Part shown: one piece after another, positions 16,854 to 50,200 of the stretch
Numbering within the stretch: position 1 is the first letter of the stretch
Layout of the letters: the number at the start of each line of letters is the position of its first letter
Source of the DNA: Chara braunii
Taxonomy: Eukaryota > Plantae > Charophyceae
Assembly: GCA_003427395.1 (NCBI GenBank)
Contig: BFEA01000027.1
Span: 1,172,170 to 1,236,147 of the forward strand
Length of the DNA: 63,978 bases
Reading direction: 5' to 3'
Made by a program: the position numbers and the translations under genes
The notes under the pieces: generated by a model
Told to the model about the DNA's origin: nothing
Database searches by the model: none
What the model saw: the letters and a program-made list of their open reading frames with translations, nothing else

Positions 16854-16886
<33 letters not shown>

Positions 16887-17060: not shown

Positions 17061-17061
<1 letters not shown>

Positions 17062-18598: not shown

Positions 18599-18650
18599 CT
18601 GCATGTCATACAAGCACCAAGCGCAGCAACAACAAGCAGATGGACGCAGC

Positions 18651-26668: not shown

Positions 26669-26674
26669 TGTCCA

Positions 26675-26757: not shown

Positions 26758-27556
26758 CACATGGACACCGGCAGGTTGTTAGAATGACGCTGTGACGAAC
26801 CAATTTCTGTTCCGCGCGATCTTCTGCGCGATGACAATGAGGGGTCCTAAGATGGGAAGGTTGGGCCAATTACAGGAGATCGGTATCGAAGGGAAATTGC
26901 ATCGCTATCCTCGCTTTTTCGTCTTTTCTCTTTCGTCGCTTCTTTTCGGATGGCTGGGTTCAGGGCCGGGCAAGTCCCGAGATGGCCGATTGAGTGGCCG
27001 TCGCGCCGACAAAAGCACGAATAATAATGTTTGACGCCGCTTCTTTCTTGTTTTGTTGTCGGGTTTTAGGCGCGGAGGTCGCGCGGGAATTTTGCTTCGT
27101 TCTTTTTTATTTTCTTTTTCGAATCTTGACGAGTCCTAGACGGCTCTCAGAACTTCGGATTTTCTTTTCGGAATTTGTGCTTCTTTTTGCATTAGCTAGG
27201 GATTTGGGAATTTAGGAATTCGGGATTTCTTTTGTCACGCGTTGTCTTTCTTGCGCGCTTCTTTTTGCGGCTGCAACGGAGCTTTGATTAGTCGGCGCCC
27301 TTAATCTCGCAAGTAACTGTAATTTTTGGGCTGGCGCCATTGTAACTGTATCTTTCTTCTTGAGCTTCGTCTTTCCCGCTCTCTCTTTCCCTTTTGCTGT
27401 GCCTAGCTAGGCCCGNGGCCTGCATGCTCGGATCGATGCGTGGAGAGTGGCTACGTCCCCCACGCCGCGGTCTGGCTATGCAGAACGTAGGCGCTCCCTC
27501 TCCTAATCTCCTTTCTAAGTCCTTGCAATTCTGTGTTCTTCGCGCATGCATGCACA

Positions 27557-27567
27557 CTATAAATTCC
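27557..27567 (+). promoter_or_regulatory. Candidate LTR TATA box (CTATAAATTCC)
   Basis: The same motif lies at equivalent LTR positions in A (2652), the B 3' LTR (37710) and D (minus strand, ~49117) despite flanking divergence. Confidence 0.4.
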
Positions 27568-28609
27568 GGTTGCGCGATTAGATAGCTCTCTTAACCAGTT
27601 GTTGGAAGCTCGGGGTAGCGCGATCAGTGAGTGTCGGCTCACGAGCGAAGTAAGAGGTGAGTTGAAGTGGGAGTCGGGCGACCCGACGAGCTGGTGCCGA
27701 ATGCGCGGGGTTGACGCGTGGGGCTACGACGGACTGTAGCGCGCGGGCGAACCTGACGGGTGCAGGAGGACTAAGCGGGGTGACGACTTCGTGGGTTGGT
27801 GCGTGACGACAGACTATCCGCATCAGAGAGAGAATACCGTTTAGGGGCACCTTGGATCGCGTGCGGAAGGCTTCCATTACGCTGCAGTGATAAGATGCCA
27901 AGCTCTTGGGACTCGGAGTACTTCGACCCTTGGGTGAGAGAATGTATTAGGCAAAGATACCCGGAATTCCCCTACCTAACTGAGAATCGATTGTGACTTA
28001 GGGAGTTTCACTGTGCCGTAACCAGCGATCCAAGGTGCCCCGATTTTCCCACCACGGATATCATGCAATACTTCATATCCCCCGACTTCGTCGTTATCAC
28101 TACCAATTTCCCTCCCTTCCGTCTCCTCCTTCCATATTACCACTCACCGTGGTACCGTGGAATTCCATCGCCCCGTATTGGCCCCGCACGCCTTGCGGAA
28201 ATTGTCGACGACGCGGCAACCGATGAGCCCCTGAAACTAGGGGGCCTAACCAAAACACGCGATGACAGACGCCATGTGTCTGCACCCGAAGGTGCAACTC
28301 ATCGGAATCACAACCGTCCCGGGCGGGCCTCTCCCAGAACCGTCGCCACCAAAACAGACGGATCGGACGGCCTTGAATACACCGCGCATGTCATCTGCCT
28401 TATGCTGCACGACCTCGACTGCCATCAGACCAGAGGTAACTCGCCCCTTTAGATCTATTGCATCTATGCCCCTAAAACCTTACTACATGAGATCTTAATT
28501 CCCACCTGGGACTCCACCCACACTTTTCCCAAAAATCCTTGGCACACCCCTTTTCGCACTTCCAGACCCACATCCCACTCCGATCAGGAAGTCGCGCCGA
28601 GCGAGAGGT

Positions 28610-28622
28610 TGGTATCGGAGCC
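28610..28622 (+). promoter_or_regulatory. Primer binding site, initiator tRNA-Met type (TGGTATCGGAGCC)
   Basis: One mismatch (G:U compatible) from the canonical TGGTATCAGAGC; identical in elements C and D. Confidence 0.9.
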
Positions 28623-28754
28623 CGACACGTGGCAAGGTTCTAGGATTCGTAGTTGGGCGATCTGGCTAACAGGGGACGACCTCGACCGAGGAACGCACAT
28701 CGACGCGACCCGGTCGTCACCAGAAGCCGGTCTGCGGCTCGAAGGGCGGTCAAC

Positions 28755-29807
28755 ATGAACGCTAATCAACAGAACCCCCAACAGAATCCAAATCCACAAC
28801 AAAATCCTAATCAACCCCCACCACGAGCACGGGCTCCCATGACGCCACCCGATCTTTATCTATTCGACCTTGCACATCATCTCGCTGGAGCATGGCTAGC
28901 ATCGCTCCGGGCGCAGCAGTATGATGACAACGAGGCGCAGGTAAATATCCCCGCACGCTTGGGAGGAGACGCCCATCACTGGTTTAGCACCTATGTATGG
29001 GTCGATCTCCCAACGTTCGAGCGAGATTTCTTGAATCGATTCGATTACATCCACCCGGAACAGGCTCTTTTTATGATCAAAGAACGAGTTAAAAAACCCC
29101 TCAAATCTGTCACCGAGTACCGGAACCGATTCTATAGGATGTTTGTGAAAACGGAACGAGGCGAGCAGGTAGGTAGAGATTTGTTAATCGATGGACTTCG
29201 CAGCCGAACGATGAGGGCGAAACTGCGAAAACAGTTCTCCCCCATCAACCATATGCTGCAACAGATCATGGCAGCCGCAAAGGAAATGAAACGAAAATTC
29301 GCTGCGAGTTTCGAAGAAGGGGAAGACTATCATAGGGAAGGAGACTCATCCGAGCTAGCAAGAGCTAAAGCTGAGTTGGCTGCACTACATAACAAATTTG
29401 AAAACATGGGGTTTGTGTCGGGCCCTGTCACCTATCTGGAACAGATTAGTCCCAAACGACCAGCCCCGAGTGTGATTACGAGCGTGCCCGTGTCCGTGAT
29501 GACAGCACCCCCACCCCCAATCGAAACCCCCTCACGACCGAATGAGTCTTCCGCTCTATTAGAACTAACCAAGACATTGGTTACTCTGATTCAGGAAAGC
29601 AAAAAAGAACAGCGGGAACACAACGCTCGAATAGAGGCGATGATGAGGTCGATGCGACCAATAGCGATGCGTGCCGCTTCGATTCAACACGGATTGGCCC
29701 CGGCACCCCCTCCTGCAGGAATCCCTGGCAATCTGAATGTTTGTTACACGTGTCACCAACCAGGGCATATAGCCCGAGATTGCCCTCATCGACCCCCGCA
29801 GCAATGA
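28755..29807 (+). pseudogene. gag: Element B gag
   Basis: Retrotransposon gag-like core (AHHWF..DLPTFERDFLNRF) and zinc knuckle CYTCHQPGHIARDC. The frame continues past TGA codons, probably CGA decay. Confidence 0.9.
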
Positions 29808-32800
29808 GTCGGAGACGCACCGGTAGCGGCGGCCCCGATCGCCAACGGACCTGGATGAGTAGGGGCATTGATGGAAGAAATGGAAGGAGGCGGAAGCACA
29901 TTAGCTACAATGGAGGAAGCTACTGAACTAATCCCGTTGGATCAGTATGTAACACTTGGCTACCCAGGGCTTGGGATGATCGGAACGATTAGACCCGCGC
30001 CAGAACAAAGAGAAGTGGCGGAATGGCGACCTTCTCCAGGAGAAATGGAGTCGGGAGGACCCACCTTCGTCACTGGGAAAATTGATGTTTTGAACATCGT
30101 TCGAGCCTTAGATCATTAGATTCCTCTTCCGATTGAACATCTACTTTTGATATCGGAACAAGCCAACGAACGGATGTTGCAACATTGCAAGGCGAATCAG
30201 AAACGATTCGCCCTCGCCCGAACAATGAACACGAAAGCAAAGAATCCAGCACAAGATGAAAAAGTTGTCGGAGCTTCAGACCCAATACGGTTAGGATTGA
30301 TCCAGAAGGACGATCACTTCCTACGAATCAAACCAATCCCCTGGAAATCCGCCGAATGCGATATCGAGATATGGGGAATCCCGTACAACGTCATTATCGA
30401 TTCGGGAGCCGCTGTTCTGGCTATCTCGTTACGGGTAGTTGAAAGAGCATGGAGGAAGAACGATCTAATCATGCTTACGGAAAAAGATCAGCTCGTTTCA
30501 GCAGATGGGGAGAAGATTAAAACGGTGGGACGAATGACCAATGTTGCTTTTCGATTAGGGAAGGTACATGCTTTGGGAGATGTCATAGTCTTAGACGTAA
30601 ACACTTACGACGTCCTTTTCGGCCTTCCCGCTCTTGTGGCCATGCGAGCCAATCTGGATTTCGAGAGACGATCGATTGTCCTCCGAAATACAGGAGGAAA
30701 ACCTTATGTTGTACCGATGAGATTGACCCTTCGTACCACCACTAACGTGACTCCGCGATTTTTTCCCCTGATGGCAGGAACCCTCCGCGTGATCAACTGG
30801 GATAATTCCGCAGACAACGGGCAACTGTAAAAGGACACGGACAACAGCGACGAGGATGATCCGGTGATCCTGGGGATGGCACAACAGCGTATCCATTACC
30901 CGTTGCAAGGAACAAGGTCGCTAAGCCTGACCGATCAGAGTTTACAGAGAACGCAAGCCATGATTATGGGTGAACCCCTCGTGCAAATTTCGAGGATGGT
31001 CGATTCTTTGGAACCCCTTGGAACCCTGTACGAAGGTATCTCCCCTCTACTTGCACGATATAATGACAAAAGACACTATTGCGACATCACGAGTCTTCCA
31101 CGATCTCTTTTGTCACCTGCAAAGGAGATACGATTGGTACGCTTGGGAGCGGAGACCAATTCTTTGGAACCCCCCGAGCGCCTCGAAACCGGACTCGGAA
31201 TCAAAATCGCAACGAAACCAGTGCCTTGGCAGGACATTCGAGACAGAATAACACCGAAAGAACACGTGGCCATCCGAGAACAGGATGCACGGACGATGGC
31301 CACGGTATTCTCCTGGCGGTCGGACAATTCGTTTATTTTCGCGCCCCCGCCCTAGAACATTAAGCGGGTGAGTGCGAAACACATCGATGTGCGGATATGG
31401 GATGAGTTGTACGAGTTGCACATGCCCCAATACGTACCTGATGAAATCCACCACCTAATCGCTGAAATTCTAAGAGAATACAAGGGAGTGATTAGTTTGA
31501 TAGACACAGACATTGGACTGTCATTAGTCATACAGCACGAGATTCAAACCGGAAATCATCCCCCAATCCACTGTAAGCCCTACAGATACTCCCTGGTGGA
31601 GCGGAAAACGACCCTTGAGCGGATTCGAGAATTCGAAGCCAATGGGTGGATCGAACCCGCCACCGGGCCATGGTCGTTCCCGGTAGTATTAGTGCCAAAA
31701 AAGAACGGATCGATTCACATATGCATTGATTATCGCAAGCTGAATGACATCACCATTAAAGATGTGTACCCCCTTCCCAGGATTGATGACTTGCTGGATG
31801 CGATTGGATGTGCTAATTATTTCAATAAATTTTATATTCGACATGGCTTCCATCACATCCTGGTTAAGGAGGAAGACCGACCGAGAATGGTCTTTGTATT
31901 GTTTGAAGGCATGTGGCAGTGGGTTCGATATCTGATGGGTATTTGCAACGCGCCTGCCACGTTTTAGCGAGCGATGAACGTGACGTTTCAAAACTTCGTC
32001 AACAAGACGTGGCTCACTCAAGGGATGATTAACTTTTGCATCATCGTGTACATGGACGACATCCTCGTCTACTCAGAGACCTATCATGAGCATGCACAAC
32101 ACATCGAGTGGACGCTAGGAGCTCTGAGAGACGCTTGGTTCAAGATCGTGCTCGAGAAGAGCGAGTTTTTCCTCTCGGAAATCTCGTTCTTGGGTTACGT
32201 GGTGACACGTGGAGGACTGCGACCAAATTCAAGGAAAGTCACGGCGGTGAAAGATGCTCCTGTCCCCACATCAGTGATGCAGGTTCGAGCTTTCCTGGGA
32301 TTGGCATCGTACTACCGTCGTTTTATCAAAGGCTTCGCTCGATTGCACGACCTCTTACGAATCTGCTACGAAAGGACCAACCCCTCAGTTGGGACGCAGA
32401 GTGCGAACAGGCCTTCGCCACCCTCAAAGGCGCTCTAGCGACAACACCTATTTTGATCCGGCCGGACCCCACGAAGCAGTTCAGTCTCATAACGGACTGG
32501 CAACCAAAGGCGATTTCCGCTATTCTAGTGTAGAAGGGGAACGACGGCCGAGAGCACGTCATCGAGTACGCGTCTCGTACGGTGTCAGACGAACAAAGGA
32601 ACGACTCAGCCCCGCAAGGAGAATGCTATGTTGTAATCTGGGGAATTCAGCACTTCCATCCGTACTTGTACGGACAGAAGTTCCTCCTTGTAACCAATCA
32701 CGAGCCATTATTGGCTCTCAAGAAACTCACAAATTACACGGGCATGATTGGATGGTGGGCAGTGCGCCTACAAGAATACGATTTCGACATCATCCACCGA

Positions 32801-32974
32801 AAGACAGAGAGGCACGGTAACGCGGACGGGTTGACACGTCTGCATCGCCCCGCTAAGGTATCGAAGGGCGAAGAAATCATTTCGTGGAAGGAACTGGAGT
32901 CAGCGAACGGACCCAAGTACGGACAAGTGGCAGTCCTTCCACGTGGCAAGAACCAGGCGATTAGCAATGGGTGA
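29808..32974 (+). pseudogene. pol: Element B pol: aspartic protease, reverse transcriptase, RNase H (multiple stops and frameshifts)
   Basis: IIDSGAAV; WSFPVVLVPKK..CIDYRKLN; YPLPRIDDLLD; YMDDIL; FLGLASYYRRFI; ITDWQ..; RLQEYDFDIIHR.....NADGLTR. Confidence 0.95.
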
Positions 32975-34681
32975 CGGAGGTAATCCTACAACTCCTCTCT
33001 CCCCCCTCTTGTCTTCATTTTTTCTCTCCCTACTCGACAAATTTTGTTATTTTTGTGAAGCAATCTCGCGCGTCTACTCGATCTCAATGTGTCCTAGCGG
33101 AGAAGGGTATGCAGAATGGATAGATTGTCGATAGTGTGTCGCACGAGCCCATGACTCGTGCATCCAGTACAGAAATGGCGATAAGCCTTGGTTGTGTCCC
33201 TTGTGTTGGACTGATAAGATTCCGACTGAAGCTCGATTTCTTGATGCCACGTCAGAAGGGTTGGAAAAGACCCGAAAGTTTAGAAGGGCCGAGGTATGGA
33301 CGGACACCGCTCTAATTGCCACCTTGGTAGGAACCCCCCTCCAGGACTTCACTAAGGAAGGCTGGAGGAGGGCCAACGAAAGGGCTAGGGACTATCGCTG
33401 GAACGAGGGCCGGTTAGAGAAACGAAAGACAGATGGTTGTGGGATTTGGATGGTAGTATCGCACCCGTTCATGAGGTATGACTGGGTTAAGACGGCGCAT
33501 GAGGAAACGACAACCCATTTTGCCGTACGGATCACGGAAGCGGCAATCGACAAGAACGAATGGTATTGGTTCAATATTCGTGATGATGTGAAATTCATCA
33601 TCGCGAATTGCCATGTCTGCGCTACTGACAAGGCGTCGATCCAACCGCCAAGATCGATAGTACCGACGATGGTTGAACGACCGTTTCAAAGGGTTAGCAT
33701 GGATACTACCGATATTGTGGTGCCCCCTGGACCGAATAGCTGCGAGTATTCAATCCTACTAGTATTCGTAGACCATTTTTCGAAATGGATCGAGGCATAT
33801 CTGTGTCGTACGCGACAGGCGGCTGAAATTGCGCGATATGTCAACCGGTTTCTAGGGATGCACCAGGACACAGAGGAAATCCTAACCGACAACGGGGTAG
33901 AATCTGAGGGGAAGTTTTAAGGAATCTGGTCGTACATGGTGTCGCTATTCGGAACACTGCACCCCACATGTCGCAATCTAATGGCCTAGTGGAAAACGCA
34001 AATCGAGTGATAAAGACAGCGCTGCGACGAAACATCGGGGCACGGGATACGAGGCCCTGGCCCGATATCGTAGATCACATCCTAGCGGTCCATCGGGGAA
34101 CGCCTCACGAATCAACGGGCCTTAGCCCCGTCCAATTACGAACCAATAGTGTAGCTTGTGTCTCGATACCGAGCCTTCCCGACGAATCTTCATTGAATCG
34201 ACGGCCCACAAGGGCCAGGGTTCGGGACAAGGCCAAGCGGCACATGGAGTTGATGGAGCGGTCCCTTCCCCGATTAGCCCGAAAACGCCAGAAAATGACC
34301 GAGTTGGCCCATGGCCGACAGGTCCGTAGCTACGAGGCCTGAAATGGGAACGCAGGACCACGGCCCCAGTATAAATTGGGGGACCTGGTGCAGGTGAGGA
34401 AATGTGCTCGCCAAGGGAAGATAGCGCCACGATTCTTCGGGCGGTTTCGTGTGATCGAACTCGGCCCGAACAGAGTGAACACTGTGCGCCTCGTGCCGGA
34501 GGTTTTGGGAAGCCGATCGGCTCGACCGATCGTCCGCCACGTGTCCTATCTACGTCTTCTCCCTTCCTTTCCATCTCAAGTTGCGTCAGCTTCCTCCTTC
34601 GCTACAGAAGAGAACGACGATTCCTTATCACTCTCATCCCCTCCTGTTTCTCTCACTCCATCCTCATCGCCATCACCATGA
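32967..34681 (+). pseudogene. Element B integrase with N-terminal PHD finger
   Basis: PHD-like C4HC3 at ~33045-33205; HHCC (AHEETTTH...CHVC); D,D-35-E core (SMDTT, LTDNG, NGLVENAN); GPY/F-like C-terminus (YKLGDLVQVRK..FFGRFRV). Confidence 0.9.
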
Positions 34682-36215
34682 GTTTTCTCACTGAGCGGGC
34701 TCTCGGCGATCACATGCTGGCACCACGTGGCGACATTTCGGCAATTCGGCAAGTTCATCACCCGCGATTCAGTTTGGACCTTCTATGGCTCGCACAATTC
34801 TTCAACACTACCGGGGTGTACGCAGCGACGGAGTTCCGATTCATCGGCCATCGTCAAGCGATCGTATTGGCAGAGGCGACGGCGGTTCGACGACTGTCAG
34901 CACCAGGAGTTAGCCACGTGTCTACCGTCGTCATCTTCAGTGGTGACATTAGCGCGATCAGCCCTCTGCGACACACGGTCATCCGGACGTCGCTAAGGGA
35001 GTGGGGTCAACAACTGGCAGCAGAGTGAAATCAGTGGCTTACGCGCCGCGACGATAATTTTGTCCCCGCGGACGGCATCGAAGTCGGAGGACTCCGGACG
35101 TCTCGACACGAGCCCGCGGTGGTGCTTCCTGAGCTCGTCCCTTTCCAGCGTCCTCAATGAACCGATCCCAGCTCTCTACCTTCGCTCTCCCCTCTCTCTT
35201 CACTACCTTTTGGCAGTCCGACCTTTGCCCCCATCTCTCTTTTCGTCTGGAACCACTTGTTGTCCCCCTCCTCGACCGAAGACAGTGGGAACTGTGATGC
35301 GAACAGTTCGTCGATCTTTCAGTGTGTCTGGTCGGAGTGCTGCTGACGTGGACGAGGGACATAGAGCATCGCGCCTGGATCGCATACGTGGAGTTGTTGA
35401 TCATCCAAGCTTGGAGGACGAAGGTGGAAGGAGACCTTCTCGGATTTCTATTATGATCGGTGCATCTCGGCTATCGACAACAGATCGTACAGGAACTCAC
35501 GATTCCCCTCGCGCAGCTGGCCGACGATCTCCCTCTCGATATTGTTTCGCAGTGTGACGAGATCCCGGTCCCGCACATCCTATCACGAACTCTGACACCC
35601 TACCTGCAATGGTCGGCTTGCCTCGAGGAGCTAGCAGGTAATGACAACCCGCCATCGCAACAACCATACATGGACCCCTGGGGGATAATCGACCTCGCCT
35701 TCTTTCAGCCCCGAATGGCCTCTGAAGACGAGGCGATAACACTAGAGGAGGAGAAGGAAGAGGACGAAGAGGCAGGCGACGAGGAAGAACAAGAGAAACC
35801 CCGGAAGAAGGAAGTTACAGCGAGCACAACGAGGGAGAACAGAATGACGAAGAGGAAGAAGAAGAAGAAGATCAGTTGGAAGAAGAGGAGGAGTCTGAGT
35901 GGGAGACCTTGGGTGAAGAGGCGGATCGCGCAGAGACTCACGAGGAGGATCCCGAGGCGGCACGAAGAAGAGAAGAAATCGCAGCAGGAAAGCAGCCGCT
36001 GGAGTTCGCGAGTGGGGCCGAACGAGCCGGCCAAGGATCCCAAGCCGCCCAAGAATGACGATGGGGACCTTGCTGCCGAGACTTCGAGCGCACCGGCCCG
36101 AAGGCGACGAAGCCGATCCCCCTCCCCCTCCACCTCCGCCCGTCCACCAGTTCAAGCTCGTACCGATGCACGGCATCGGGCTTCGTCCCCGGTCCTTATC
36201 CCGTCGTCCCCTTGA
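34678..36215 (+). pseudogene. Element B accessory ORF3 (one or two ORFs; acidic tract, RS-rich tail)
   Basis: The ATG overlaps the integrase stop (ATGA). Long protein-like frames with stops and frameshifts; the C-terminus is conserved with 339-854. Confidence 0.65.
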
Positions 36216-36693
36216 CCACCTCACCCTCCGCCAGATCACTACCCGCATCACCTTCCCTTGCAATCCCTTCCCAATCGACACCTTCCGCTTCTTCTACGCC
36301 ACCCGTCTTGCCGTTACGGTTCATCCCCATCCTTCTACCCGGTGTGCCACCCCTGTCTTCTGTTTCCATGCCCTTCTCTTCAGTGCCGTGTGGCAAGGCC
36401 GCAACATCGTCGAGGTTTACTGCATGATCAAGGGGACTATCCCCGCATGCGAAAACCACGATCACTTCCGCACGGCGCTTTTCCGAACTTTCACCACGCT
36501 TTACCTCGACTATCTCGCCTCCCTCCCTCATAGTGGTAATCGATTCCCTCACTTCCACCGGATCATCCGATATCAGGAGCTTCCGGAGACAGTCGCGGGA
36601 TTAGAACGCTCCCTGCCCCCACTCCCGACTAACCCACCCCCTCGCCATGCCCCCATGTATCGTCTTCCCTTTCCCCTTCCCTTAGGTCATTGA
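36166..36693 (+). CDS. Element B accessory ORF4 (175 aa, unknown function)
   Basis: Open frame; start codon and sequence conserved with 805-1310, with synonymous changes. Confidence 0.7.
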   Translation: MHGIGLRPRSLSRRPLDHLTLRQITTRITFPCNPFPIDTFRFFYATRLAVTVHPHPSTRCATPVFCFHALLFSAVWQGRNIVEVYCMIKGTIPACENHDHFRTALFRTFTTLYLDYLASLPHSGNRFPHFHRIIRYQELPETVAGLERSLPPLPTNPPPRHAPMYRLPFPLPLGH

Positions 36694-38710
36694 TGCACGG
36701 TTGATTGACACGTGTCACGGCGATGGCACGCACGATCTCCCCCCCTTGGACTGAAGAAAGCCCATCCTGAGGAATTATAGGAGACAACCACGTGTGCCAC
36801 CCTGGATGACGTCCACACTCTTATCGAACGGTAAGTGGCAACAAAGAAGGCTCCGCGTGTCAATCGATTAGAGAGATTGACACGTCTCATGATTCAAGCA
36901 AGTAGGAGCTTGCTTAAGATTGGAACCCCCTGGGCGTCACATATGTGACGAACCAATTTCTGTCCCGCACGATCTTCTGAGCGATGACAATGAGGGGTCC
37001 TAAGATGGGAAGGTTGGGCCAATTACGGGAGATCGGGATCGAAGGGAAATTGCATCGGTATCCTCGCTTTTTCGTCTTTTCTCTTTCGTCGCTTCTTTTT
37101 GGATGGTTGGGTTCAGGGCCGGGCAAGTCCCGAGATGGCCGATTGAGTGGCTGTCGCGCCGACAAAAGCGCGAATAATAATGTTTGACGTCACTTTTTTC
37201 TTGTTCTGTTATCGGGTTTTAGGCGCGGAGGTCGCGCGGGAATTTTGCTTCGTTCTTTTTGAATTTCTTTTTGGAATCTTGTCGAGCCCTTGACGGCTCT
37301 CGGAACTTCGGATTTTCTTTTCGGAATTTGTGCTTCTTTTTGCATTAGCTAGGGATTTGGGAATTTAGGAATTCGGGATTTCTTTTGCCGCGCGTTGTCT
37401 TTCATGCGCGCTTATTTTTGCGGCTGCAACGGAGCTCTGATTAGTCGGCGCCCTTAATCTCGCAAGTAACTGTAATTTTTGGGCTGGCGCCATTGTAACT
37501 GTATCTTTCTTCTTGAGCTTCGTCTTTCCCACTCTCTCTTTCCCTTTTGCTGTGCCTAGCTAGGCCTGCGGCCTGCATGCTCGGATCGATGCGTGGAGAG
37601 TGGCTACGTCCCCCATGCCGCGGTCTGGCCATGCAGAACGTAGGCGCTCCCTCTCCTAATCTCCTTTCTAAGTCCTTGCAATTTCGTGTTTTTCGCACAT
37701 GCATGCACGCTATAAATTCCAGTTGCGCGATTAGATAGCTCTCTTAACCAGTTGTTGGAAGCTTGGGGTAGCGCGATCAGTGAGGGTCGGCTCACGAGCG
37801 AAGTAAGAGGTGAGTTGAAGTGGGAGCCGGGCGACCCCAAATGCGCGGGGTTGACGCGTGGGGCTACGACGGACTATAGCGCGCGGGCGAACCTGATGGG
37901 TGCAGGAGGACTAAGCGGGGTGACGACTTCGTGGGTTGGTGCGTGACGACGGACTATCCGCATCAGAGAGAGAGAGAGAGAGAGGATGAGAGAGCTGAGG
38001 TTGATGGACGTGGATTTGCAATTTTCTTTGTCTTGTCTCCCTCTTTGCTTTTGTATATAAGTTTTGATCTCGGCTTAGGGCGATTTGCCCGTTTCCTTTG
38101 TTTTCGGAATCTTTGCCTCGGTTTCAGCCCACCCTTGTTTTGCGGTTGATCTTGATCTCATCTATCGTATGTTCTGATGAATAACTAGATGAATGAATGC
38201 CATGTCTGATGTTTTTCTTTTGTCTGGTCATTGCCTTGGCCTGTCATAAGCATGGTAGAAATTTCTGCATAGTCGTCTTTCTTGCCTCTATTATTGTTCA
38301 TCACTTTGATCCGCTGTTGTTCTAATGTTGCTATGATATCTGATGTATGACAATGCCTTGCATATTCGGGAATGATTGCTTGCGAGATTACAGAGTGATT
38401 AGATGATTGGGTAGTTGTTTACGACACATGGCGATTTTGCATAAGGAATTAGGCTCTCATTCTCCCAGAAACGAGCGAACACCCAGCGGGGACACACGGA
38501 AGCACGATTCGATCCGTGCAGCCTACACGTGTCCACACGCGCCGATTCGTGACCATCAACGAACTTGACATCTCTGGTATCGGATAGGCGGGAATTCCCC
38601 CCCCTCCTCCACACACACCTAAACGGATAGAAATTTCCGATATCACATCGGAAAAATCCCCTTGCCGGTTAGACGCGTGCGGAAGGCTTCCATTACGCGG
38701 CAATGATAAG

Positions 38711-39193
38711 ATGCCAAGCTCTTGGGACTCGGAGTACTTCGACGCTTGGGTGAGAGAAAGTATTAGGCAAAGATACCCGAAATTCCCCTGCCTAACCGAG
38801 AATCGATTGTGCCCTAGCGAGATTCACTGTGATGTAACCAGCGATCCAAGGTGCCTCGATTTTCCCACCACAGATAACACGCAATACTTCATATCCCCCG
38901 GCTTCGTCGTTATCACTACCAATTTCCCTCCCTTCCGTCTCCTCCTTTCGTATCACCAACTCACGGTGGTACCGTGGAATTCCATCGCCCCGTATTGGCT
39001 CCGCACGCCTTGCGGAAATTGCCGACGACGAGGCAACCGACGAGCCCCTGAAACTAGGGGGCCTAACCGAAACACGCGACGACAGACGCCACGTGTCTGC
39101 ACCCGAAGGTCTGACTCATCGAAATCACAACCATCCCGGGCGGGTCTCTCCCCGAACCGCCGCCATCAAAACAGACGGATCGGACGACCTTGA
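38711..39193 (+). CDS. LTR-encoded ORF of element B (intact in the 3' LTR; disrupted copy at 27895-28376)
   Basis: GFVVITTNFPPFRLLLSYHQLTVVPWNSIAPYW...CGNC motif is shared with A, C and D. Confidence 0.65.
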   Translation: MPSSWDSEYFDAWVRESIRQRYPKFPCLTENRLCPSEIHCDVTSDPRCLDFPTTDNTQYFISPGFVVITTNFPPFRLLLSYHQLTVVPWNSIAPYWLRTPCGNCRRRGNRRAPETRGPNRNTRRQTPRVCTRRSDSSKSQPSRAGLSPNRRHQNRRIGRP

Positions 39194-39629
39194 ATACACC
39201 ACGCATGCCATCTGCCTTATGCTGCACGACCTCGACTGCCATCAGACCAGAGGTAACTCGCCCCTTTAGCTCTATTACATTTATGCCCCTGAAACCTTGC
39301 TACAGGAGATCTCCGTTCCCACCTGGGACTCCACCCCCACTTTTCCCAAAAATCCTTGGCACACCCCTTTTCGCACTTCCAGGCCCACATCTCACTCCGA
39401 TCAGGAAGTCGCACCGGGCGTGAGCTTGGGCGTCACAAGGCACGGCTGGACACACACTCCCCTAGCTTGACGCATGGTACTATTACAGACACTGCCTGCA
39501 CACCACCCGGGGGTCAGTCCATGGGTGTTGTATGCTGGCCTAGACTTCACGTTGGATGCTGGTTGTTGTTGGCTTTGGTCGCTCTGACAATCTCCCCCAG
39601 CCCGGACATTACACACATTATATCCACTT

Positions 39630-39700
39630 CCCACGGTGGTACATGTGGTAAAACTCTCCAATTTCATACTGTAGGTCACAAGTTCGAGTCCGGTTCCGGA
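39630..39700 (+). other. Degenerate tRNA-like A/B-box sequence
   Basis: GGTGGTACATGTGGTAAAAC ... AAGTTCGAGTCC with tRNA-like spacing. Confidence 0.4.
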
Positions 39701-40101: not shown

Positions 40102-40147
40102 TGTGACACCCAACTTCACGTCCGGCGCGACTTCCTGATCGGAGTGG
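40102..40147 (-). mobile_element. Right end of another B-family element (E), interrupted by element C
   Basis: Reverse complement CCACTCCGATCAGGAAGTCGCGCCGGACGTGAAGTTGGGTGTCACA matches 39392-39437. Confidence 0.85.
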
Positions 40148-42107
40148 TGTGACGAACCACTTTCTGTTTCGCGCGAATTTTTGTGCGATGACAATGAGGG
40201 GTCCCGAGATGGGAAGGTTGGGCAAATTGCGGGAGGAGGGGTCGGCGAGTAAATTGCGTCAGTGTCCTTGCTTTTTTCTTTTCCTTCGCTTCGCTACTCC
40301 CCTTTCGATGGTGATGGGACAGGCCTGGGACAGACGGTTGAGTGTGCGCGCCCCATTGGGCGTGATCAATAACGATTGGCGATAATTATTTCTTGCTCTG
40401 CTAGGAATAAAAGGAGGGAACTGAGATTTTGGCGCGACGATCGCGCGGGAGCTTTTCGGGTTTGTTTTTAAAATTTTCCTTTCAACTAAGAACGAGCCCC
40501 GAGGGCTCTCGGAATTTTTGATTTCCTTGTCTCACCGGAATTTTTCTGTTGCAATTTTGAGTTCAGATAGGAATTTAGGACTTTTTGAATTTCTTGCCGA
40601 GCGGCGCCTCTTTCTTGCGCATATATTCCTGCGGGGGGAACGAAGTTATGACTAAGCGGCGTCCTTAATCTTGCATGCAACTGTAATCGATGGGCGGGCG
40701 CCATTGTAACTGTATCTTTCTTCTTGTTCCTTCGCATTCTTCCCGCCCTTTTTCCCTTCTTTTTGCTGCATCTGATTGGCCTGAGCGCTGCATGCCTAGA
40801 TCGATGCGTGGAGAGTGGCTACGTCCCCCACGCCGCGATCTGGTCATGCCAAGCGTAGGCACTTCCTTCTCTGCTCCTCTTTTCAAATCCCTGCAATCTC
40901 ACATCTTCGCGCACGCATGCATGCGATAAATTTCATCAGCGTGATTAGAAAGCTCTCTAAAAATTTTGGAAGCTCGAGGTTAGCGCGATCAATGAGGGTC
41001 GGCTAATGAGCGAAGTAAGAGGTGAGTTGACGTGGGAGTTGGGCGACCCGACGAGCTGGTGCCAAGGGCGCGGGGTTGACGTGTAGGCCACGACGGACTG
41101 TGGCGCACGGGCGAACCTGACAGGCACATGCGGACTAAGCGGGGTGACAACTTCGTTGGTGGGTGCGAGACAACGGACTGTCCGCATCGGAAAGAGAGAG
41201 AGAGGGGAAACAGGCGGATATGGAATTGCAATCTTCTGTCTTTTCTCAGTCCTTGTGTATGAAATTTTGGCTCTGGGCGAGGCGCCCTTGTTTTGCATTT
41301 TTGACATTTCTTTCGGCTTTGTGTGATGTGCGGCTCAATCTCCGTCCTCCCTATTTCGTTTTTGCATCCGCTTGATGAGATGGGTTTGATGATCTTGTAA
41401 TGCTTGAATACCCGATGTTTTGCGTGTCATCCTGAATCATCCAGCGCTTGCAGCACTGATCTATTCTCACTCGGATGATTGGTAGGTGAAAGGAGTTTGA
41501 TACTGTTACGGTGCTTCGATGTATGTCTGGATGGTGATGAGATATTCTCCTAATGGCCACATAACTGCTTTTTGGTCGAACAAAATTGTCTGAAGGATTG
41601 TTGCATGAACCTTCTTCTGCACAGGTGATTGGCTAATGGATCAACCCACAGTGGACCAACCCCGCGAGTCCCCGTGTAAGTGCGATCTGACGAGCACGAC
41701 TTACACGCGCCCCCACGAGGACGGCCCGCAACCCCGAATAATCTTAGCACGACAGATCTCGACGCGAATGATGGAATCCCTATCTACGGTACGGGTCAGG
41801 ACGAATTGCGGTCCCGACGCCCTCAGACATTCGGGGATCGCTGAGTGTATAGGCTTTGTGCAAGACCGAAACGGAACGAGATTGATAGTCTGAGGGAATT
41901 AGTTGCATGACTGAGCCGGTACGCTGACAGATCGCTCCCCTGGTTATTTGCGCAGATCAGGATCTGGTCCGCTGGCCCTTGCGCACGCACGTGTAAGACA
42001 GCGGTCGTCCGCAGACGTGCCATCTATACGTGCGCCCGCAAAAGCCAGCCACGATCTCGCCCCGTAGGAAGATGTGTATGCAGGAATTCGGTTGAACGAG
42101 ACATGCA

Positions 42108-42686
42108 GTGGCGATAGATTCTCCTTTCTGGATCACCGATCGCGAAAGCCTGAGGGACCCAGAATACCGAGCGTATTGGGAGAGGGAACAGATCCGTCGG
42201 CAGCGAATCCGACAACATCGCCACCTTCGGAACCCTGGGTATCTTGAGTACCCCTGCCGGACTGAAAACAAGCGACTGTGCAGGGGCGACTTCCAGCTGG
42301 CAATCAACCGAGACTCGCGGATTCCCGGTTATCCCGACACCCGAAACCAGCAATATCTTCTAACCCAAGGCTTCGTTGCCATTACCACTGACTTCCTTCC
42401 CTACTATACCGTCCTCCCCTACCACCGGTTCCTCGTGGTCCCCTGGGATTCCATAGCCCGGTTCTGGCCCTGTCCGTCGTGCTCGGAGTGTCGGCAGCCC
42501 GACGAGCATCGGCAGGTGATGATCGTGCAACGAGCTCATCTCAGGGCCGAGCGACGAGAACCCAGCTCGTCTTCGTCGGACCCCGAGACGTGCGACGGTC
42601 GGCAGCGGTACGAGCACTCCCACAGAGACACCCGTAGCAACCCACCCCGGCCCAGGCAACACAATCTGGCATCAACCCAACTCTGA
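42108..42686 (+). CDS. LTR-encoded ORF of element C; start uncertain
   Basis: GFVAITTDFLPYYTVLPYHRFLVVPWDSIARFW...CSEC. Confidence 0.6.
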   Translation: MAIDSPFWITDRESLRDPEYRAYWEREQIRRQRIRQHRHLRNPGYLEYPCRTENKRLCRGDFQLAINRDSRIPGYPDTRNQQYLLTQGFVAITTDFLPYYTVLPYHRFLVVPWDSIARFWPCPSCSECRQPDEHRQVMIVQRAHLRAERREPSSSSSDPETCDGRQRYEHSHRDTRSNPPRPRQHNLASTQL

Positions 42687-43004
42687 GCCAGAAGACACTT
42701 GCACTCCTACCCCTGAAACTTGCCACAGAAGATCTCAGTTTCGACCTGGGACTCCACCACAAATCCCCAAAAATCCTTGACACACCCCTTTTTCGCACTT
42801 CCGGGCCCCCATCCCACTCCGATTAGGAAGTCGCGCTGGGCGTGAGGTTGGTATCGGAGCCGACACGTGGCGAACTCACAGGGAGGTAAGCAGGATAGAC
42901 GTTCAGACGATCTGGCGAATAGAGGATGACCCAGACAGCGGAACGCGCCTCGACACGATCCTATGGTACTTAGGAGTCGATCGGCCGGAAGACAGACCGT
43001 CAAC

Positions 43005-44937
43005 ATGAGCGTCAATCAAGCGCTAAACGTTAATGTACAGTTGGGCGGGGCACCTGTCCCCGCACCACCCGTCCGAGTTCGCACACATGCAGCTCCCCCT
43101 TATTTGTATCTCTTCGACTCTGCGCATCACCTAGCCGGGGCATGGCTGGCCACCTTACGGGCTCAACAGTACGATAACGATGAAGCCCGGATCAACATCC
43201 CCGCCCGATTGGGAGGAGACACGCACCATTGGTTTAGTACCTACGCCTGGATCGATCTCCCGACCTTCGAGAGAGACTTCCTAAATTGGTTCGACTACAT
43301 CCACCCCAAACAAGCTTTCTTTATGATCAAAGATCGTGTGCAGAAACCTCTTGAATCCGTTACCGAATATCGTAGTAGGTTCTATAGGCTGTTTGTCAAG
43401 TCAGAGAGAGACGAAAAGGTAGGTAGAGACTTGTTTATCGATGGGCTTTGAAGTCGGGCGATGAGGGCAAAAGTACGAAAGCAGTTCTCCCCCATCAACC
43501 ATACCATGCAGCAGATTCTGGACGGAGCCGAGGAGATGGAAAGAAAGTTCGCCGCCAGCTTCTTAGAAAGCGAAGATCACGCCAAGGAGGGAGACTCCTC
43601 GCAGCTGGCCCGGGCGAAAGCTGAGCTGGCAGCGCTTCAGAACAAATTAAAAAATATGGGTTTCGTCTCCGAACCTGTCACCTACCTAGAACAGGTCGCG
43701 GCCAAAAGGCCGATACCCGATACAGTCGCAGGACTACCCACAGCGATCACACCCTCGCCTCCCCCAAGCATCCCCGCAAAGCCTAACGAATCGAATGCCA
43801 TATTAGAATTAACTCGAACGTTAGTTTATTTGATGCAGGAAAGTAAGAAGGAGCAGTGTGAGCACAATGCACGAATTGAATCGATGATGAGGTCGATGCG
43901 CCCCATTACCATTAGGGCAGCCCCAGGAATGCCAGGAGCAGCCCCTGCCCCAGCAATAGGAGGGGCAGCAGCCAACACAAGTGTTTGTTACACGTGTCAC
44001 TAGCCAGGACATATAGCCCGGGACTGCCCCCACTGACCTGCACAACCCAGGATCGAAGCCGCGCCAGTGGCAGCGGCCCTGATTGCTAATGGACCCGGTC
44101 GAGTGGCTACGATGGTGGAAGAAATAGACAATGGTGTGAAAGACGATAACTTTATACGAATCCGGACTCTTCCATGGAAATCCGCCGAATGCGACGTGGA
44201 AGTTTGGGGAAACCCCTATAGCGCGGTCCTTGATTCCGGAGCCGCGGTCCTGGCCATCTCCTTGCGAGTAGTCGAACGGGCCGGCAGGCGAAAGGATGTG
44301 ATCCCATTCACGGAAGGCGATCATTTCGTCTCCGCTGACCAAGGCAAGATCCGAGTCATAGGGAGGATGGCGAATGTAGCCTTCCGCATCGGTAAGGTCA
44401 ATGCCTTAGGTGACATGGTGGTCCTAAACGTGAACATGTACGACCCTTACCGCGTTGCGAGCCACGCAGGATTTCAAACGACGAGCCGTTATCCTCAACA
44501 ACACAGGAGGAAGTCCATACACTATTCCGATGCATCTCACTCTTAGGGTAGCCTCGATGGTCGAGCGACAACGACAGGAACCTGGCACGGTTCTGCGAAT
44601 GATACGATGGGAAGAATCCACGGACGACTCCGACACTGAAGAAAACGAGGCTTCCTTGCCATCCATCACCACCGAAAGCGAGGAAGAGAACGACCCGCAG
44701 ATTCTCGAACTAGCACGACGGATAATCCATTACCCGGTTCGACCGAAAACAACGAAGACGTTCGTATTTAGCAACGAGGCAGCCCGACGAACTCGGGCCC
44801 TTATCCTAGGAGAACCACCGGTATAGGTGTCACGGATGCCCGATTCTTTGGAACCCCCTCGGACCCTATACGAGGGAGCTGCCCCACTGCTACCACGATA
44901 TCTGGACAAACGGTCGTTTTGTGATGTTACGGGCATA
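43005..44937 (+). pseudogene. gag: Element C gag-protease
   Basis: Aligns to B gag; CYTCH*PGHIARDC; VLDSGAAV. Confidence 0.9.
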
Positions 44938-44939
44938 CC

Positions 44940-46109
44940 TCGAAGAGGAAGACGGAATGGGGTTTTCAGAAGGAGGGAGGGGACGAAGGTAGGAGGTATG
45001 GCGGACAACGGGAAGAGAGCTATGGCTGGCGCTGGCCTCAGGCGCGATGCGGACCGTGTTGGCTCCGTTAGGACCGAGTTCCACTACGAGAAAACAGCCA
45101 GAGAACTTGGGAGCGAGTTTCCGGTCGCGTGCACATTTACGTACCTGCACCAGATCCCCTGGTTTATATTGGTGTTGCGGGTCTGCATTCCCGTTCCGGG
45201 CCTCGTAGCTACGGACTTGTCTACCGTGGGCCAGTTCGGTCATTTTCTGTCTTTCCGGGCTAGGTTAGGGATAACCCTTTCCATTAAATCTGCATATCGC
45301 TTAGCCTTGGCTTTAAGGGCCGCACGCGTGTCCCTGCCCCCTTTTTCGACAATTCTCGAGATACCCCGATTATCGACACATGGAATGTTATTGGTCCGAA
45401 GCTGAAAGGGGGTGAATCCAGTGGACTCATGGGGGGTCGCTCGATGGATCCCGATGATTTGATAGACAATCTCGAGCCAAGGACGCGTGTCATTAGTCGC
45501 TAAATTCTTGCGGAGAGCGGTCTTAATCATGCGGTTCGCATTTTCGGCCAACCCGTTCGACTGGGAGACATGGGGAGCAGTGTGTCGGAGAGTAACGCCA
45601 CGATGCATCAGTAATTCCTCGACCTCAACTTTGAATTCATACCCATTATCGGTTAGAATTTCCTCTGTATCTAGATGGTTATTGAGGAATCGGTCAATGT
45701 ATGTAGCTATCTCTGAGGCCTTACGGGTCTTACAGGGGTAGACTTCGATATATTTCGAAAAATGGTTGATCAACACCAAAAGAACGGAATATTCACAACG
45801 GTTGGGGCCAGGTGGCACGTCGATATTTGTTGCGTCCATACTGACTCGCTGGAAAGGGCGTTCCAAGTGATCTTTTTCCGTGTAAGAGATAGCAGCGACC
45901 CACGCAGTTTCAGATGCGTCAGGTTCGGTCGTAGAGGGAGAGGTTGTCTCAGCCTCGTCATCCTTCTTCTTTAGCATTCGCTGAACGCGTTGATACGTGA
46001 AGTGTTTTTGATTCTTCCGACACTGCATAAGTTTATCATTTGCTACCTCTGATATGGTTACCAAGTGTTCTACTGGGACAGGAACTCGGATATCCGACTG
46101 CTTGAGCAC
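44940..46109 (-). pseudogene. Element D post-gag linker fused in frame to integrase core
   Basis: ..YTEKDH|LERPFQRVSMD..LTDNG..NGLAENAN..YKPGDLVQVRK. Confidence 0.85.
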
Positions 46110-46178
46110 CTGTAGAACACCAATTTCTCCCGTTCGAAACTGCGGTCCGGGTTCTGATCCTCGCTCGACCCATTCGAG

Positions 46179-47449
46179 CTAATCTTTGCCAGGTCGGATT
46201 GCTCCCATCAATCCTGCCAAATGAAGATACTCTGCAGGATCAACGACATCAGCTGCTTCGGAAGATGATCCCGAAGTGGACGCGATGGGGTCGGTCGAAG
46301 ACGGCTGTTCGGTAGAGAAGGAGAAGGCTTCTCTATCCTTTGTTGCTTCCAACACTGCGGCCACCCGACCTTGATTCAGGGCCACAGGCGCAGCTGCTGG
46401 CGGGGGTTGATTACGCTTTGGCTGAGGGCATTCACGGGCAAAGTGTCCAGGTTGTTTACAATTGTAACATTCAATCCTCCCTACTGGATTGACCGCATGA
46501 GGGGGAGCAGGGGGCGCTGGTCCACATACAGGAGGAGCGGTCAACAGAGGGTACGAAGCAGGAACGGGGCGGGAAGGGTTAGAATTAGCTTTCATTAGTT
46601 TCGTCATGATCTGTTCCAACCGATCCATCTGAGAAGCCTGCATCTGAATCAGATTATTCATCCACTCAAACTGTTTAGCTGTAGCAGTATGAATCATCTG
46701 GGCTAGATGCATGTTAGTAATAGGCACTGAGGTAGCATCCTAGGTCATTACGGTATTCACGGGTGCCATTTTTGGAGAAAGAGAAGGCCTCGAGGGAGGC
46801 AGGGGATGAGAGATCCGGAGTGGGCCCGTCTTGATCAGGGCGAGGGTAAAATCGTCCCACCGCTCTGAGCCACAAGCGCCGCTTAGCAGCCACATCTTGC
46901 ATCGTGTCCGAGATGTCTTCATCCCCCTGACTGATACTTGCGCGTATCCAGCAGATCTAGTTCAAGCGCTTGAGCTATGATAACGGGTAGCTGGTTCGTC
47001 TTTGGAGAAACTTTTTTCTGCAGCTTCGCTTTCAACACTGGATTGCGGAGATGATCGATGAACAAGTCTCGAGCAGCATTTTCTTCCCGCCCAGATTTAT
47101 CTAATGCAGTTTGAAACCGATCCACAAAGTCGGCCAGCAGTTCTCCGGGTTCCTGTGGTCGGGTTTTTAGTACGAACCACGCGGCATCTTCGCTGACTTC
47201 GTCGAATCTCGCTAGGAACGCCCTCTTGAACATATCCCAATCTACCCACCTATGCCTTCTAAACCAATCGTGAGCAGTGTTTCGAAGTAGCAGGGAAATG
47301 ACGCGAGGGAGATCCTCTGCACCATACCCCTGAGCTTGCACGGCTTGGAGCCATGCCTCGGGATGAGTATAGTTGGGGTAGAACGGGAAGGTAGCGGGGA
47401 TGCTTACCATCACCCGGGGAGGTGCTCCATTAGCGTCGGGCATGGGCAT
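46179..47449 (-). pseudogene. gag: Element D gag (frameshifted)
   Basis: AHDWF..WDMFKRAFLARF; zinc knuckle. Confidence 0.85.
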
Positions 47450-47810
47450 TTCTAGTCGAGCTTCGGCGGACCTCTGTCGAGTGACGGGAGGACTAAGACG
47501 GTAAGATCGGTTAGATGATCTTCCTCTCGCCAGTTCGTCTTACTCTCGTCAGAACCGACACGTGTCGGCTCCGATACCAACCTCACGCCCTGTGCTGTCT
47601 TCCGTTCGAAGTGTTTAAAATTTCGGAAGTGGCCCCGGAAAGGCAGCAAGATGAGGTGTGCCAAGGATTTTTGGAAGATTGAGTGCGGGGACACAGACAG
47701 AACCGAAATCCCCAGTGCCGGTCCGACTTAGTAAGAAGGGGGGAGAGTCCGTCACTGCGCGGGTTCTGAGGGAGAAGAAGGCGCGCGTGGGACTCATGGC
47801 GTGAGGAAAT

Positions 47811-48350
47811 TCAATCCAAAAAGTATCGTAACGGTTGAACTTCCCATCGAGCTGTCGCTTTACGTTTCGCGTGGAAGGGGGCGGGCACGTACTTGGTATC
47901 CCGTTTCCGGGTCAAGTCCCGACGTCGCTCATTACACAACTCTGAATCTGACGTGGAAGGCCTTAACAGGGTGGCTCTTTCCTTATGCTCATCTTCCTCT
48001 CGTACTCGGAAGTGAAAGCCCTTTGATTGGTAACGCTCGAAGCGGCAACAATCGTTGCACAGAGTGTTAGGCCAATGGGGCGCTACTGCTGACCACGGGA
48101 TGACGATTAGCTCATTAAACGACAATAGCAATGAATAAGGCGGAAAGTGTGTGTCCACAATAACAAAACCAGCACCGACAAATCCAGAGCATCGAGTTTT
48201 AAGAGGCAAGTAGTATCTTCCGCCGATCTTGGTGACGGCTTCTCGTACGTCCCACTCGCATACACGTGTCCTCTTCTCGTTATATGGGAAGGGGCGTGGG
48301 GGGGATGCGGAAGGCCGGCGCCCAGTCGGCTTGGGACAATCGGTCCACAT
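47811..48350 (-). CDS. LTR-encoded ORF of element D
   Basis: Close homolog of 3575-4027 with mostly synonymous differences. Confidence 0.65.
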   Translation of the reverse strand: MWTDCPKPTGRRPSASPPRPFPYNEKRTRVCEWDVREAVTKIGGRYYLPLKTRCSGFVGAGFVIVDTHFPPYSLLLSFNELIVIPWSAVAPHWPNTLCNDCCRFERYQSKGFHFRVREEDEHKERATLLRPSTSDSELCNERRRDLTRKRDTKYVPAPFHAKRKATARWEVQPLRYFLD

Positions 48351-50200
48351 GGCAACAGCGAGATCCTATTTAGCATGCATCCCACATGTTAATCAGAACG
48401 ATCCTACGATCTAGTGGAAGACAAGTCCATCAGGCAATCGTCTCATGATCCAGACATTCTCATTCATCCTCACAGACATTCATCAAAGAAGGTGCGAAAA
48501 TGGCAGCCACACATCATTCAGTTCTCCGTGTGCTCTGTACCCCTGCCCCGTTATCCCCGATTAATTAAGCGTCAGCCAAACAACAATCTCATTCCTCGTG
48601 TACAATAGATTAACAAGCATCCATAATTGTTCATGTCATAGAGGGAGAGAGAGGAGGTAGGGAGGAGAAGACGCGGAGCAGACAAGATAGATGAAAATTA
48701 CACCAAGATCCGATGATGAAAAAAAGGAAAGAGCTTCGGGCTTAACTGTCGTCGAACTGAACTCACACCAAGGAATAGATTCGAGACAGGGAGGCGCATC
48801 CGCCGCGAAGTTCAGTTATGGCCCCGGGCCATTCATCCATTCAACTCTGATTACTATCCCCGTGCATGCACCGACGATCCCGGCCGTCGCATGCCACTTT
48901 CCACCACTGCGATCGTCACCCCGCCGACTTAGTCTCTGCACAGCCTTCCCGGATCCCACAGTCCGTCATGGCGATCAGGCGCACCGTCGGCCAGACTACA
49001 GTCAGCTCGTCGGGACTTTTCGACTCGCACTCCACACATACCATCTAGCCACCGCTTCCCGGAAGCTGGCATACAAGTTGAGAGAGAGATTTGTGGGCGC
49101 GCTTGCGGAATTTATAGTTGCGGGAAGGGAGGTAGATACGAGGGAGGATGCAGATTGGGGCAGGGAAGGGTGAGGGGGGGTAGGGGATAATTGCTCGGCG
49201 AAAGCCATGTTGATCCTTCTGAGTCCGATCGTAGCCAATCAGAGTCATCGCATAATAGGAGCTTCCTCTTACACGGCGCTTCTCCTTGGCTAGACGAGGT
49301 AAGGAAAAGACCGACCGGGTTCTTGGGTGTAGGACTTAGAGTGGGAGGGGAAGGGTGCGCAGGATAGCGCGAAACGGATCCAAGATTCAGATGATCAAGA
49401 AAGAGAAAACGCGCGCGGGGCGAGAGAGAGAGAGAGAGGGAAAAAACGGTTACAGAGGGAGAGTGAGCGTGGGCGCGAAGGGAGCGTCGAAGATGGCGAG
49501 GGGAGCAGAAAGGGGGAAGCTCGCTTGCATGGCGCCGATCACAGATGCAAAAAGAGGCACCAAAACAGTTACAGATTCNNNNNNNNNNNNNNNNNNNNNN
49601 NNNNNNNNNNNNNNNNNNNNNNNNNNNNNNNNNNNNNNNNNNNNNNNNNNNNNNNNNNNNNNNNNNNNNNNNNNNNNNNNNNNNNNNNNNNNNNNNNNNN
49701 NNNNNNNNNNNNNNNNNNNNNNNNNNNNNNNNNNNNNNNNNNNNNNNNNNNNNNNNNNNNNNNNNNNNNNNNNNNNNNNNNNNNNNNNNNNNNNNNNNNN
49801 NNNNNNNNNNNNNNNNNNNNNNNNNNNNNNNNNNNNNNNNNNNNNNNNNNNNNNNNNNNNNNNNNNNNNNNNNNNNNNNNNNNNNNNNNNNNNNNNNNNN
49901 NNNNNNNNNNNNNNNNNNNNNNNNNNNNNNNNNNNNNNNNNNNNNNNNNNNNNNNNNNNNNNNNNNNNNNNNNNNNNNNNNNNNNNNNNNNNNNNNNNNN
50001 NNNNNNNNNNNNNNNNNNNNNNNNNNNNNNNNNNNNNNNNNNNNNNNNNNNNNNNNNNNNNNNNNNNNNNNNNNNNNNNNNNNNNNNNNNNNNNNNNNNN
50101 NNNNNNNNNNNNNNNNNNNNNNNNNNNNNNNNNNNNNNNNNNNNNNNNNNNNNNNNNNNNNNNNNNNNNNNNNNNNNNNNNNNNNNNNNNNNNNNNNNNN

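Follow-up and report, generated by a model that had tools for sequence, protein, structure and literature searches.

Split direct repeats are described as the defining feature of the PAT, Ngaro and VIPER retrotransposons (PMC4157794, PMC9210276), and plant gypsy lineages are described as having a 4-5 bp target site duplication (TSD) and a polypurine tract (PPT) (Neumann et al. 2019, PMC6317226). Repeats of the DIRS type have been reported on a Gypsy body in the charophyte Klebsormidium nitens, where the legend of Fig. 4c gives the order A-coding-B-A-B together with Gypsy domains for the element KnitGypsy-Dnmt3 (de Mendoza et al. 2018, PMC5890265). The text of that article (PMC5890265) was found to describe neither how long the repeats of this element are nor its junction, its TSD or a mechanism, and searching three supplementary files by terms turned up no mention of its repeats. 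In retroviruses, circles with joined long terminal repeats (LTRs) are mostly regarded as dead ends, as stated in a study of foamy virus integrase, an enzyme reported there to cleave each strand of a palindromic LTR-LTR junction behind its CA, with 5' overhangs of 2 nt as the outcome (PMC1180852).

Here, we analysed 63,978 nucleotides of the Chara braunii genome (contig BFEA01000027.1, positions 1,172,170 to 1,236,147; hereafter the window, in whose coordinates features are given). A self-comparison of the window and a motif scan revealed five related pieces belonging to two families, with elements B, C and E in one and elements A and D in the other. The sole complete one is element B (26791-39437, + strand), a whole but decayed Ty3/gypsy-type retrotransposon with TG...CA ends. 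Element A is a 3' part (1705-4406, +) made of a conserved motif (1705-1715), an 11-nt block (1716-1726), a TA, an LTR (1729-4395) and a terminal block (4396-4406); element C (40148-42861, +) consists of a 5' LTR without this block (40148-42848) followed by the primer-binding site (PBS); element D (47567-49578, - strand) also has a 5' LTR without block, with its end at 47580 followed by the PBS and its start in an assembly gap; element E (40102-40147, -) comprises the final 46 nt of a right end, terminal block included, and is broken off by element C. Since these four are partial, internal and terminal blocks can be paired within the same copy in two cases only (n = 2). In the nest at 40102-49578, element C is inserted in reverse orientation in the end of the LTR of element E, its pol stops near 44940, adjoining the reversed integrase region of element D, and element D is without most of its protease, reverse transcriptase (RT) and RNase H region. 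The window also carries a third, solo-LTR-like repeat family of ~1.3 kb with TG...CA ends (51324-52655, +, flanked by GATA/GATT; 60279-61522, -; 62365-63719, -) and a phospholipase D gene with two long exons (13364-18811, -) that encodes a C2 domain, two PLDc motifs and a PLD_C domain.

A preliminary description of this DNA had assigned to these elements the layout A1-internal-B1-TA-A2-B2, in which A is the LTR and B the 11-nt block, and our junction tables agree with it. In element B, repeat A1 (the 5' LTR, 26791-28609, +, with a TATA-like box near 27557) ends with GAGGT, lacks a CA and directly abuts the PBS TGGTATCGGAGCC (28610-28622, +), which starts with TGG, is the same 13 nt in elements B, C and D, and is presumably of the initiator-Met type as judged from a plant motif; a tRNA search within the window found none. 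GAGGT abuts the PBS in the same way at 42848 in element C and at 47580 (-) in element D, as had been claimed for all three copies. The 5' LTR is without the last 11 nt in these three window copies (3/3), on which this part of the layout rests, so that the two equal TG...CA LTRs of Ty3/gypsy elements are not found here. All three right ends do carry the extra block, namely TGCACGTCACA in element A (4396-4406), TGGGCGTCACA in element B (block B2, 39427-39437, +, ending with CA) and TGGGTGTCACA in element E (40112-40102, -), and its register is identical after LTR ends that read GAGGT, GAGCT and GAAGT. Block-TA-TGTGAC is found again upstream of the 3' LTR in 2/2 cases, at 36931-36949 in element B and at 1716-1734 in element A. 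In element B, this stretch starts with block B1 (TGGGCGTCACA, 36931-36941, +), the internally placed copy of the right end, and continues through a 2-nt spacer (36942-36943) into repeat A2 (the 3' LTR, 36944-39426, +, with a TATA-like box near 37710). Perfect palindromes of 16 bp (36935-36950, on neither strand in particular) and 14 bp (1721-1734) are present, and the one of 16 bp lies across CA-TA-TG and reads like an att junction formed by two ends placed end to end. Over 1805 aligned sites, the two LTRs of element B have an identity of 94.2% (K2P 0.06), the 5' LTR being short by ~700 bp through an internal deletion relative to A2.

The block co-varies by family as first described, being of the TGG type in the family of element B and of the TGC type in that of element A, at internal and terminal places alike. 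This match within each family argues for the earlier suggestion that the terminal copy may be templated from the internal one. The single-letter differences between blocks in elements A and E are CpG-type transitions, and the probability that a sequence at a set position agrees by chance with a particular 11-mer, one mismatch being allowed, is ~8e-6. Considering that the LTRs of the two families have in common short stretches only, near the sub-terminal region, the presence of the same layout in both indicates that it is old and has been maintained. We regard it as virtually certain that the split-repeat architecture is real. The 11 nt at the end of the LTR read GGGCGTGAGGT in elements A (4385-4395), C (42838-42848) and D (47590-47580, -), and with one or two changes in elements B (39416-39426) and E, and are conserved across both families. 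This LTR end, which has GGGCGT in common with the terminal block, may be a relic of duplication or a sub-terminal mark separating the right end from the internal palindrome.

A polypurine tract is absent from these elements: the 15 nt that precede the block or the LTR contain 6-8 purines, and the best 12-nt purine windows (9-10 purines) sit 20-30 nt before the block. The expected place of the tract is occupied by a conserved TTGGAACCCCC (36920-36930, +). When five junction regions were folded as RNA, the z-scores ranged from -1.8 to +0.5, and we claim no special structure for them.

Element B is flanked by a 4-bp TSD, ACGC on the left (26787-26790, +) and AGGC on the right (39438-39441, +), with one substitution that is in line with the 94.2% identity of its LTRs. 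In sequencing run X6, 38 reads join the left flank of element B directly to position 39440, which corresponds to the empty site with ACGC present once. The element is inserted in another high-copy repeat (26300-26790 and 39438-39700), and empty-site reads are common. A 4-bp TSD and TG...CA outer ends were thus found in the one testable element (1/1), and since this TSD lies outside the block, the DDE integrase took the CA of the block as the end of the element. ACGC stands at the target of element B and also at the right flank of element E (40101-40098, -), that is at 2/4 visible flanks, which is too few for a preference; moss Phygy elements are described as favouring NCGN targets (PMC6317226).

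The coding part of element B has the gypsy domain order gag-protease-RT-RNase H-integrase, with gag at 28653-29807 (+; weak Retrotrans_gag, zf-CCHC), protease, RT and RNase H at 30120-32857 (+) and an HHCC and DDE integrase at 33135-34582 (+); stops and frameshifts break the protease, RT and RNase H region, the integrase has a frameshift near 33910, and none of these coding regions is intact in this copy. That a DDE integrase rather than a tyrosine recombinase is encoded, as proposed earlier, was borne out by a set of seven integrases, of which six have the HHCC motif and five the full D-D-E triad, the second D and the E being 35 positions apart, the misses being truncated or deleted copies. 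Pfam scans of 11 frames of element B and of 6 homologs found no tyrosine recombinase family, and no methylase family (Dnmt3) was found in such scans of the frames of element B and of homologs. An extra sense open reading frame (ORF) with an acidic tail follows the integrase (34678-36083, +, broken) and is also seen at 534-731; its 38 homologs are all from Chara, are 55-91% identical and are annotated as host genes (CBR_g numbers). This ORF matched no Pfam family, had Atlas scores of at most 0.80, a model pLDDT of 45 and a best Z of 6.0 in structure comparison; we assign no function to it, and Pfam, Atlas, the model and the structure comparison gave no sign of a recombinase or a ligase.

The homologs of the integrase are named Chara braunii proteins in 13/13 cases. 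In a quick RT tree of 120 sequences of at least 170 residues, from which shorter hits were dropped and which was built without named lineage references, 17 sequences that are 70-100% identical form one clade (SH-aLRT 100, stem 0.82), and the next hits are at most 45% identical. A search with RT-RNase H gave 150 best hits. Twenty hits were looked up, of which 10 are from Chara and the others include Rhizopus, Haematococcus, frog and metagenome proteins, and none of the 150 best RT hits matches two short methyltransferase motifs. Pattern scans of metagenome contigs and viral contigs gave 0 loci, which is uninformative on the range of the elements since there is little algal DNA in those collections. 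Considering that equal LTRs and a PPT are both lacking, we class the element as a variant of Ty3/gypsy and not as an ordinary member.

In retroviral-type replication, the minus strand begins at the PBS, such that the right end of the cDNA copies the end of the 5' LTR. The right cDNA end would here be a GAGGT that lacks an att site, so that inheritance from the terminal block of the parental element is impossible and the internal block must be the source of the terminal one, and since PBS-primed synthesis is unable to template the terminal block, some end-joining step is needed. We compared the LTR end with the internal site and found no similarity upstream of the block; a homology-driven jump is ruled out on this ground, and the transfer must be end to end, with a plus strand that starts at the TG of the block and a copied repeat that corresponds to block-TA-A.

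We propose that RT joins the ends of the linear DNA copy and that, prior to insertion, the DDE integrase opens the CA-TA-TG palindrome next to this join, a reading of the sequence to which we give about an even chance. Replication would start in the standard way by tRNA priming at the PBS, giving a right end that stops at GAGGT without att site. The plus strand would then start 13 nt upstream of the TG of the LTR, just after TTGGAACCCCC, which likely sets this start, and would make the copied repeat block-TA-A. One to three leftover primer bases at the right end would form a TG(G) overhang that may pair with the CA or CCA 3' end of the left terminus, and extension by RT would put block-TA behind the LTR. 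Retroviral and LTR-retrotransposon RTs are reported to clamp ends with at least 2 base pairs (bioRxiv 2021.05.13.443781). The block starts with TG (TGG in the family of element B), as do the first bases of the PBS, and this common TG(G) is the overlap that RT needs for clamping, if RNase H spares a few primer bases. The integrase, already sitting on the termini, would next make one staggered cut after each CA, and with a spacer of 2 nt separating CA from TG, a single such cut would leave two CA-3' ends that are recessed, each beside a 5' overhang of 2 nt. Strand transfer would then give the 4-bp duplication seen at the target site of element B, and the internal palindrome, left uncut, would template the next round. 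The preliminary description had placed the cut at CA/TG in the palindrome, and a cut at CA/TA/TG fits the layout as read from sequence; it had also mentioned a template jump by TG(G) overlap as an alternative; such a jump fits at least as well as the circle that it favoured and merges with the cut of the palindrome. Several points speak against a join by RT: a cleavage preference of RNase H, and not an overlap, could account for the TG match, the integrase would need to act 13 bp inside an end, and a pyrimidine-ended primer would somehow have to withstand RNase H.

A host ligase may otherwise close a block-TA-A...block-TA-A cDNA into a covalent 2-LTR circle, of which the integrase would open the new junction; we consider this rather unlikely, while it deserves to be weighed first among the other explanations. 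A single closure would be enough to yield exactly the layout seen, the 2-nt spacer fits one staggered cut in this case as well, and the foamy virus integrase is reported to cleave 2-LTR junctions (PMC1180852). Moreover, foamy virus 2-LTR junctions were uniform in 36/40 clones (PMC1180852), so that the precision of the joint alone is compatible with blunt ligation. The TG match to the PBS is left unexplained by ligation, and the circle would contain two identical palindromes of at least 13 bp, such that a cut at the internal one would yield tandem junctions and ends in which an internal block abuts the flank. If a plain 2-LTR circle was formed as the preliminary description had it, one would expect from its equal palindromes that this other permutation arises about as often.

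The internal junction is present in many copies and hardly varies between subfamilies. Aligned to it (36886-36975), 1112 contigs of DNA run X1 and 953 of DNA run X4 pile up on 36922-36948, and the loose ends of the contigs show that other subfamilies diverge to the left and to the right of this core. The variation that follows describes the aligned copies only, since diverged reads are clipped and do not enter the count: no variant of at least 2% is listed at 36916-36929, 36931, 36934 or 36937-36953, there is no indel, the TGC form of the block makes up 21%, and CpG positions vary by 2-4%. At the joint between repeat A and block B2, no indel was found among 12 entries listed of 33, and the register is the same in 3/3 copies. 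An equal share of the other permutation would shift depth by 15-25%, as estimated from the depth table. The summed contig depth, which is not a copy number, changes by +4.2% and +5.8% at the left edge of the block and by -5.8% and -2.2% across its right edge, along a smooth slope; this test is partly blind, as pieces of ~20 letters stay unaligned and no rise is seen at the LTR start, where starts of 5' or solo LTRs must exist, and only subfamilies matching over at least 30 letters could reveal alternative permutations. Among 28 raw reads (27 from run X6 and 1 from run X7), at most 2 begin at the block and at most 1 ends near the block end, and no site of an alternative permutation appears among the 17 loose ends listed of 112. 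RNA reads, used as a sample of copies only, map on both strands with no start or end peaks listed. The lone read of run X7 spans 36931-36963 from the first base of the block, which may reflect a tandem junction or simply where a read happened to end; it looks as a tandem-junction read would, which counts against the join by RT. Alternative permutations are at most a minority by depth steps, read ends and listed loose ends, and equal use of both palindromes is unlikely. The plain circle as first stated is not upheld, with steps of only +4 to +6% and -2 to -6%, and these small steps argue that the integrase favours the palindrome beside the ends. A ligated circle would consequently need an integrase preference for the end junction, perhaps through GGGCGTGAGGT, which precedes block B2 but not block B1 and which, as an 11-nt LTR end conserved in both families, could mark the right site; an LTR end of this type could equally supply site choice in any of the models compared here. 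That some joined-end intermediate, made by RT or by ligation into a circle, is opened by the integrase appears likely to us.

A third explanation, which we find improbable, does without any circle: the integrase would cut the left end 13 nt in, and the released 13-mer, clamped to the TG(G) overhang of the right end, would be copied by RT, resulting in a blunt right end with CA-TA that then undergoes ordinary processing. The 2-nt spacer, the TG overlap and the spared internal palindrome would all be accounted for with linear ends alone; this scheme, however, requires a 13-nt 3' processing and the retention of a short oligonucleotide, for which no precedent was found in the literature searched. 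Very improbable is that one-LTR circles recombine through repeat A into existing solo A-B repeats: the product, A-internal-B-TA-A-B, has the observed order, but such recombination cannot make new A|B joints or target duplications and hence is not the origin of the layout, and the terminal block is that of the own family's internal block in both families. That these are ordinary LTR elements whose pattern comes from nesting, flank sequence or assembly error, as the gaps and the nested, broken elements of the window might suggest, is largely refuted and extremely improbable, since two families show the same register, the TSD and the empty site put the block inside the element, and individual contigs, as well as raw reads, from other runs extend across the internal junction.

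Returning to the joined ends, we lean towards the view that such an intermediate is obligatory in Chara, with primary cDNA ends that have no att site, a single integrase cut at an encoded att-att palindrome that makes both ends, and a plus strand made without a polypurine tract. Joined LTR ends as an integration precursor are an old open question of retrovirology, and in Chara the join is written into every provirus, so that each genomic copy is one independent record of a join and that the precision of joining, the choice of site and the templating can be counted from the genome alone. An obligatory intermediate of this kind would, if true, mean that the Panganiban-Temin pathway is realised in nature at high copy and that split-repeat elements using tyrosine recombinases have a DDE counterpart, and the layout links DDE elements to that of PAT and Ngaro. 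Tools for which a pair of equal TG...CA LTRs, a PPT and an adjacent TSD are obligatory will overlook such elements or trim them wrongly, which matters for a very abundant repeat family in a key relative of land plants; if our reading is true, such elements are possibly widespread and overlooked by LTR finders.

As to known systems, the Chara element is like Ty3/gypsy elements (Metaviridae) as described by Neumann et al. (PMC6317226) in its gag-protease-RT-RNase H-integrase order, tRNA-type PBS, DDE integrase, TG...CA outer ends and 4-bp TSD, and like the non-chromoviruses of that account in its extra 3' ORF and long LTRs, but it differs from them by its unequal terminal repeats, a 5' LTR without CA, the lack of a PPT and its internal att-att palindrome. 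Foamy virus also has a palindromic junction that is cut after CA on both strands; according to that report (PMC1180852), however, the junction exists in unintegrated DNA only and the LTRs of the provirus are equal, whereas it is a fixed part of the element in Chara. Troyka is likewise an LTR lineage defined by odd termini, but its description gives CG...CG ends, a 3-bp TSD and a restriction to animals, with no split repeats mentioned (PMC12440569); membership of the Chara element in Troyka is ruled out by its TG...CA ends and 4-bp TSD. DIRS-1 also carries its joined termini as an internal copy that serves to rebuild the ends, as described in PMC7192593, although with inverted repeats, single-stranded cDNA, a tyrosine recombinase and no known primer. 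The preliminary description knew of no Gypsy lineage with the present layout; this has to be qualified for KnitGypsy-Dnmt3, whose legend places DIRS-type repeats on a Gypsy body (PMC5890265), and it otherwise stands, as our literature search, which covered few subscription papers and not Repbase, found no other account of this lineage or junction. KnitGypsy-Dnmt3 is similar as a charophyte Gypsy body with a DIRS-style repeat order, a likeness by description only, and it differs by a Dnmt3 in Pol, of which the Chara element has none (PMC5890265). With PAT, Ngaro and VIPER, as described in PMC4157794 and PMC9210276, the Chara element shares the order A1-internal-B1-A2-B2 and a B1-A2 boundary that is an end-to-end junction; these elements use a tyrosine recombinase and can have a far longer B (152 bp in DIRS-53_XT versus 11 bp in Chara), whereas the Chara element has a PBS, a DDE integrase, a TSD and a TA between B1 and A2. 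The Chara element is thus a gypsy element by its proteins, PBS and TSD that works like a split-repeat element.
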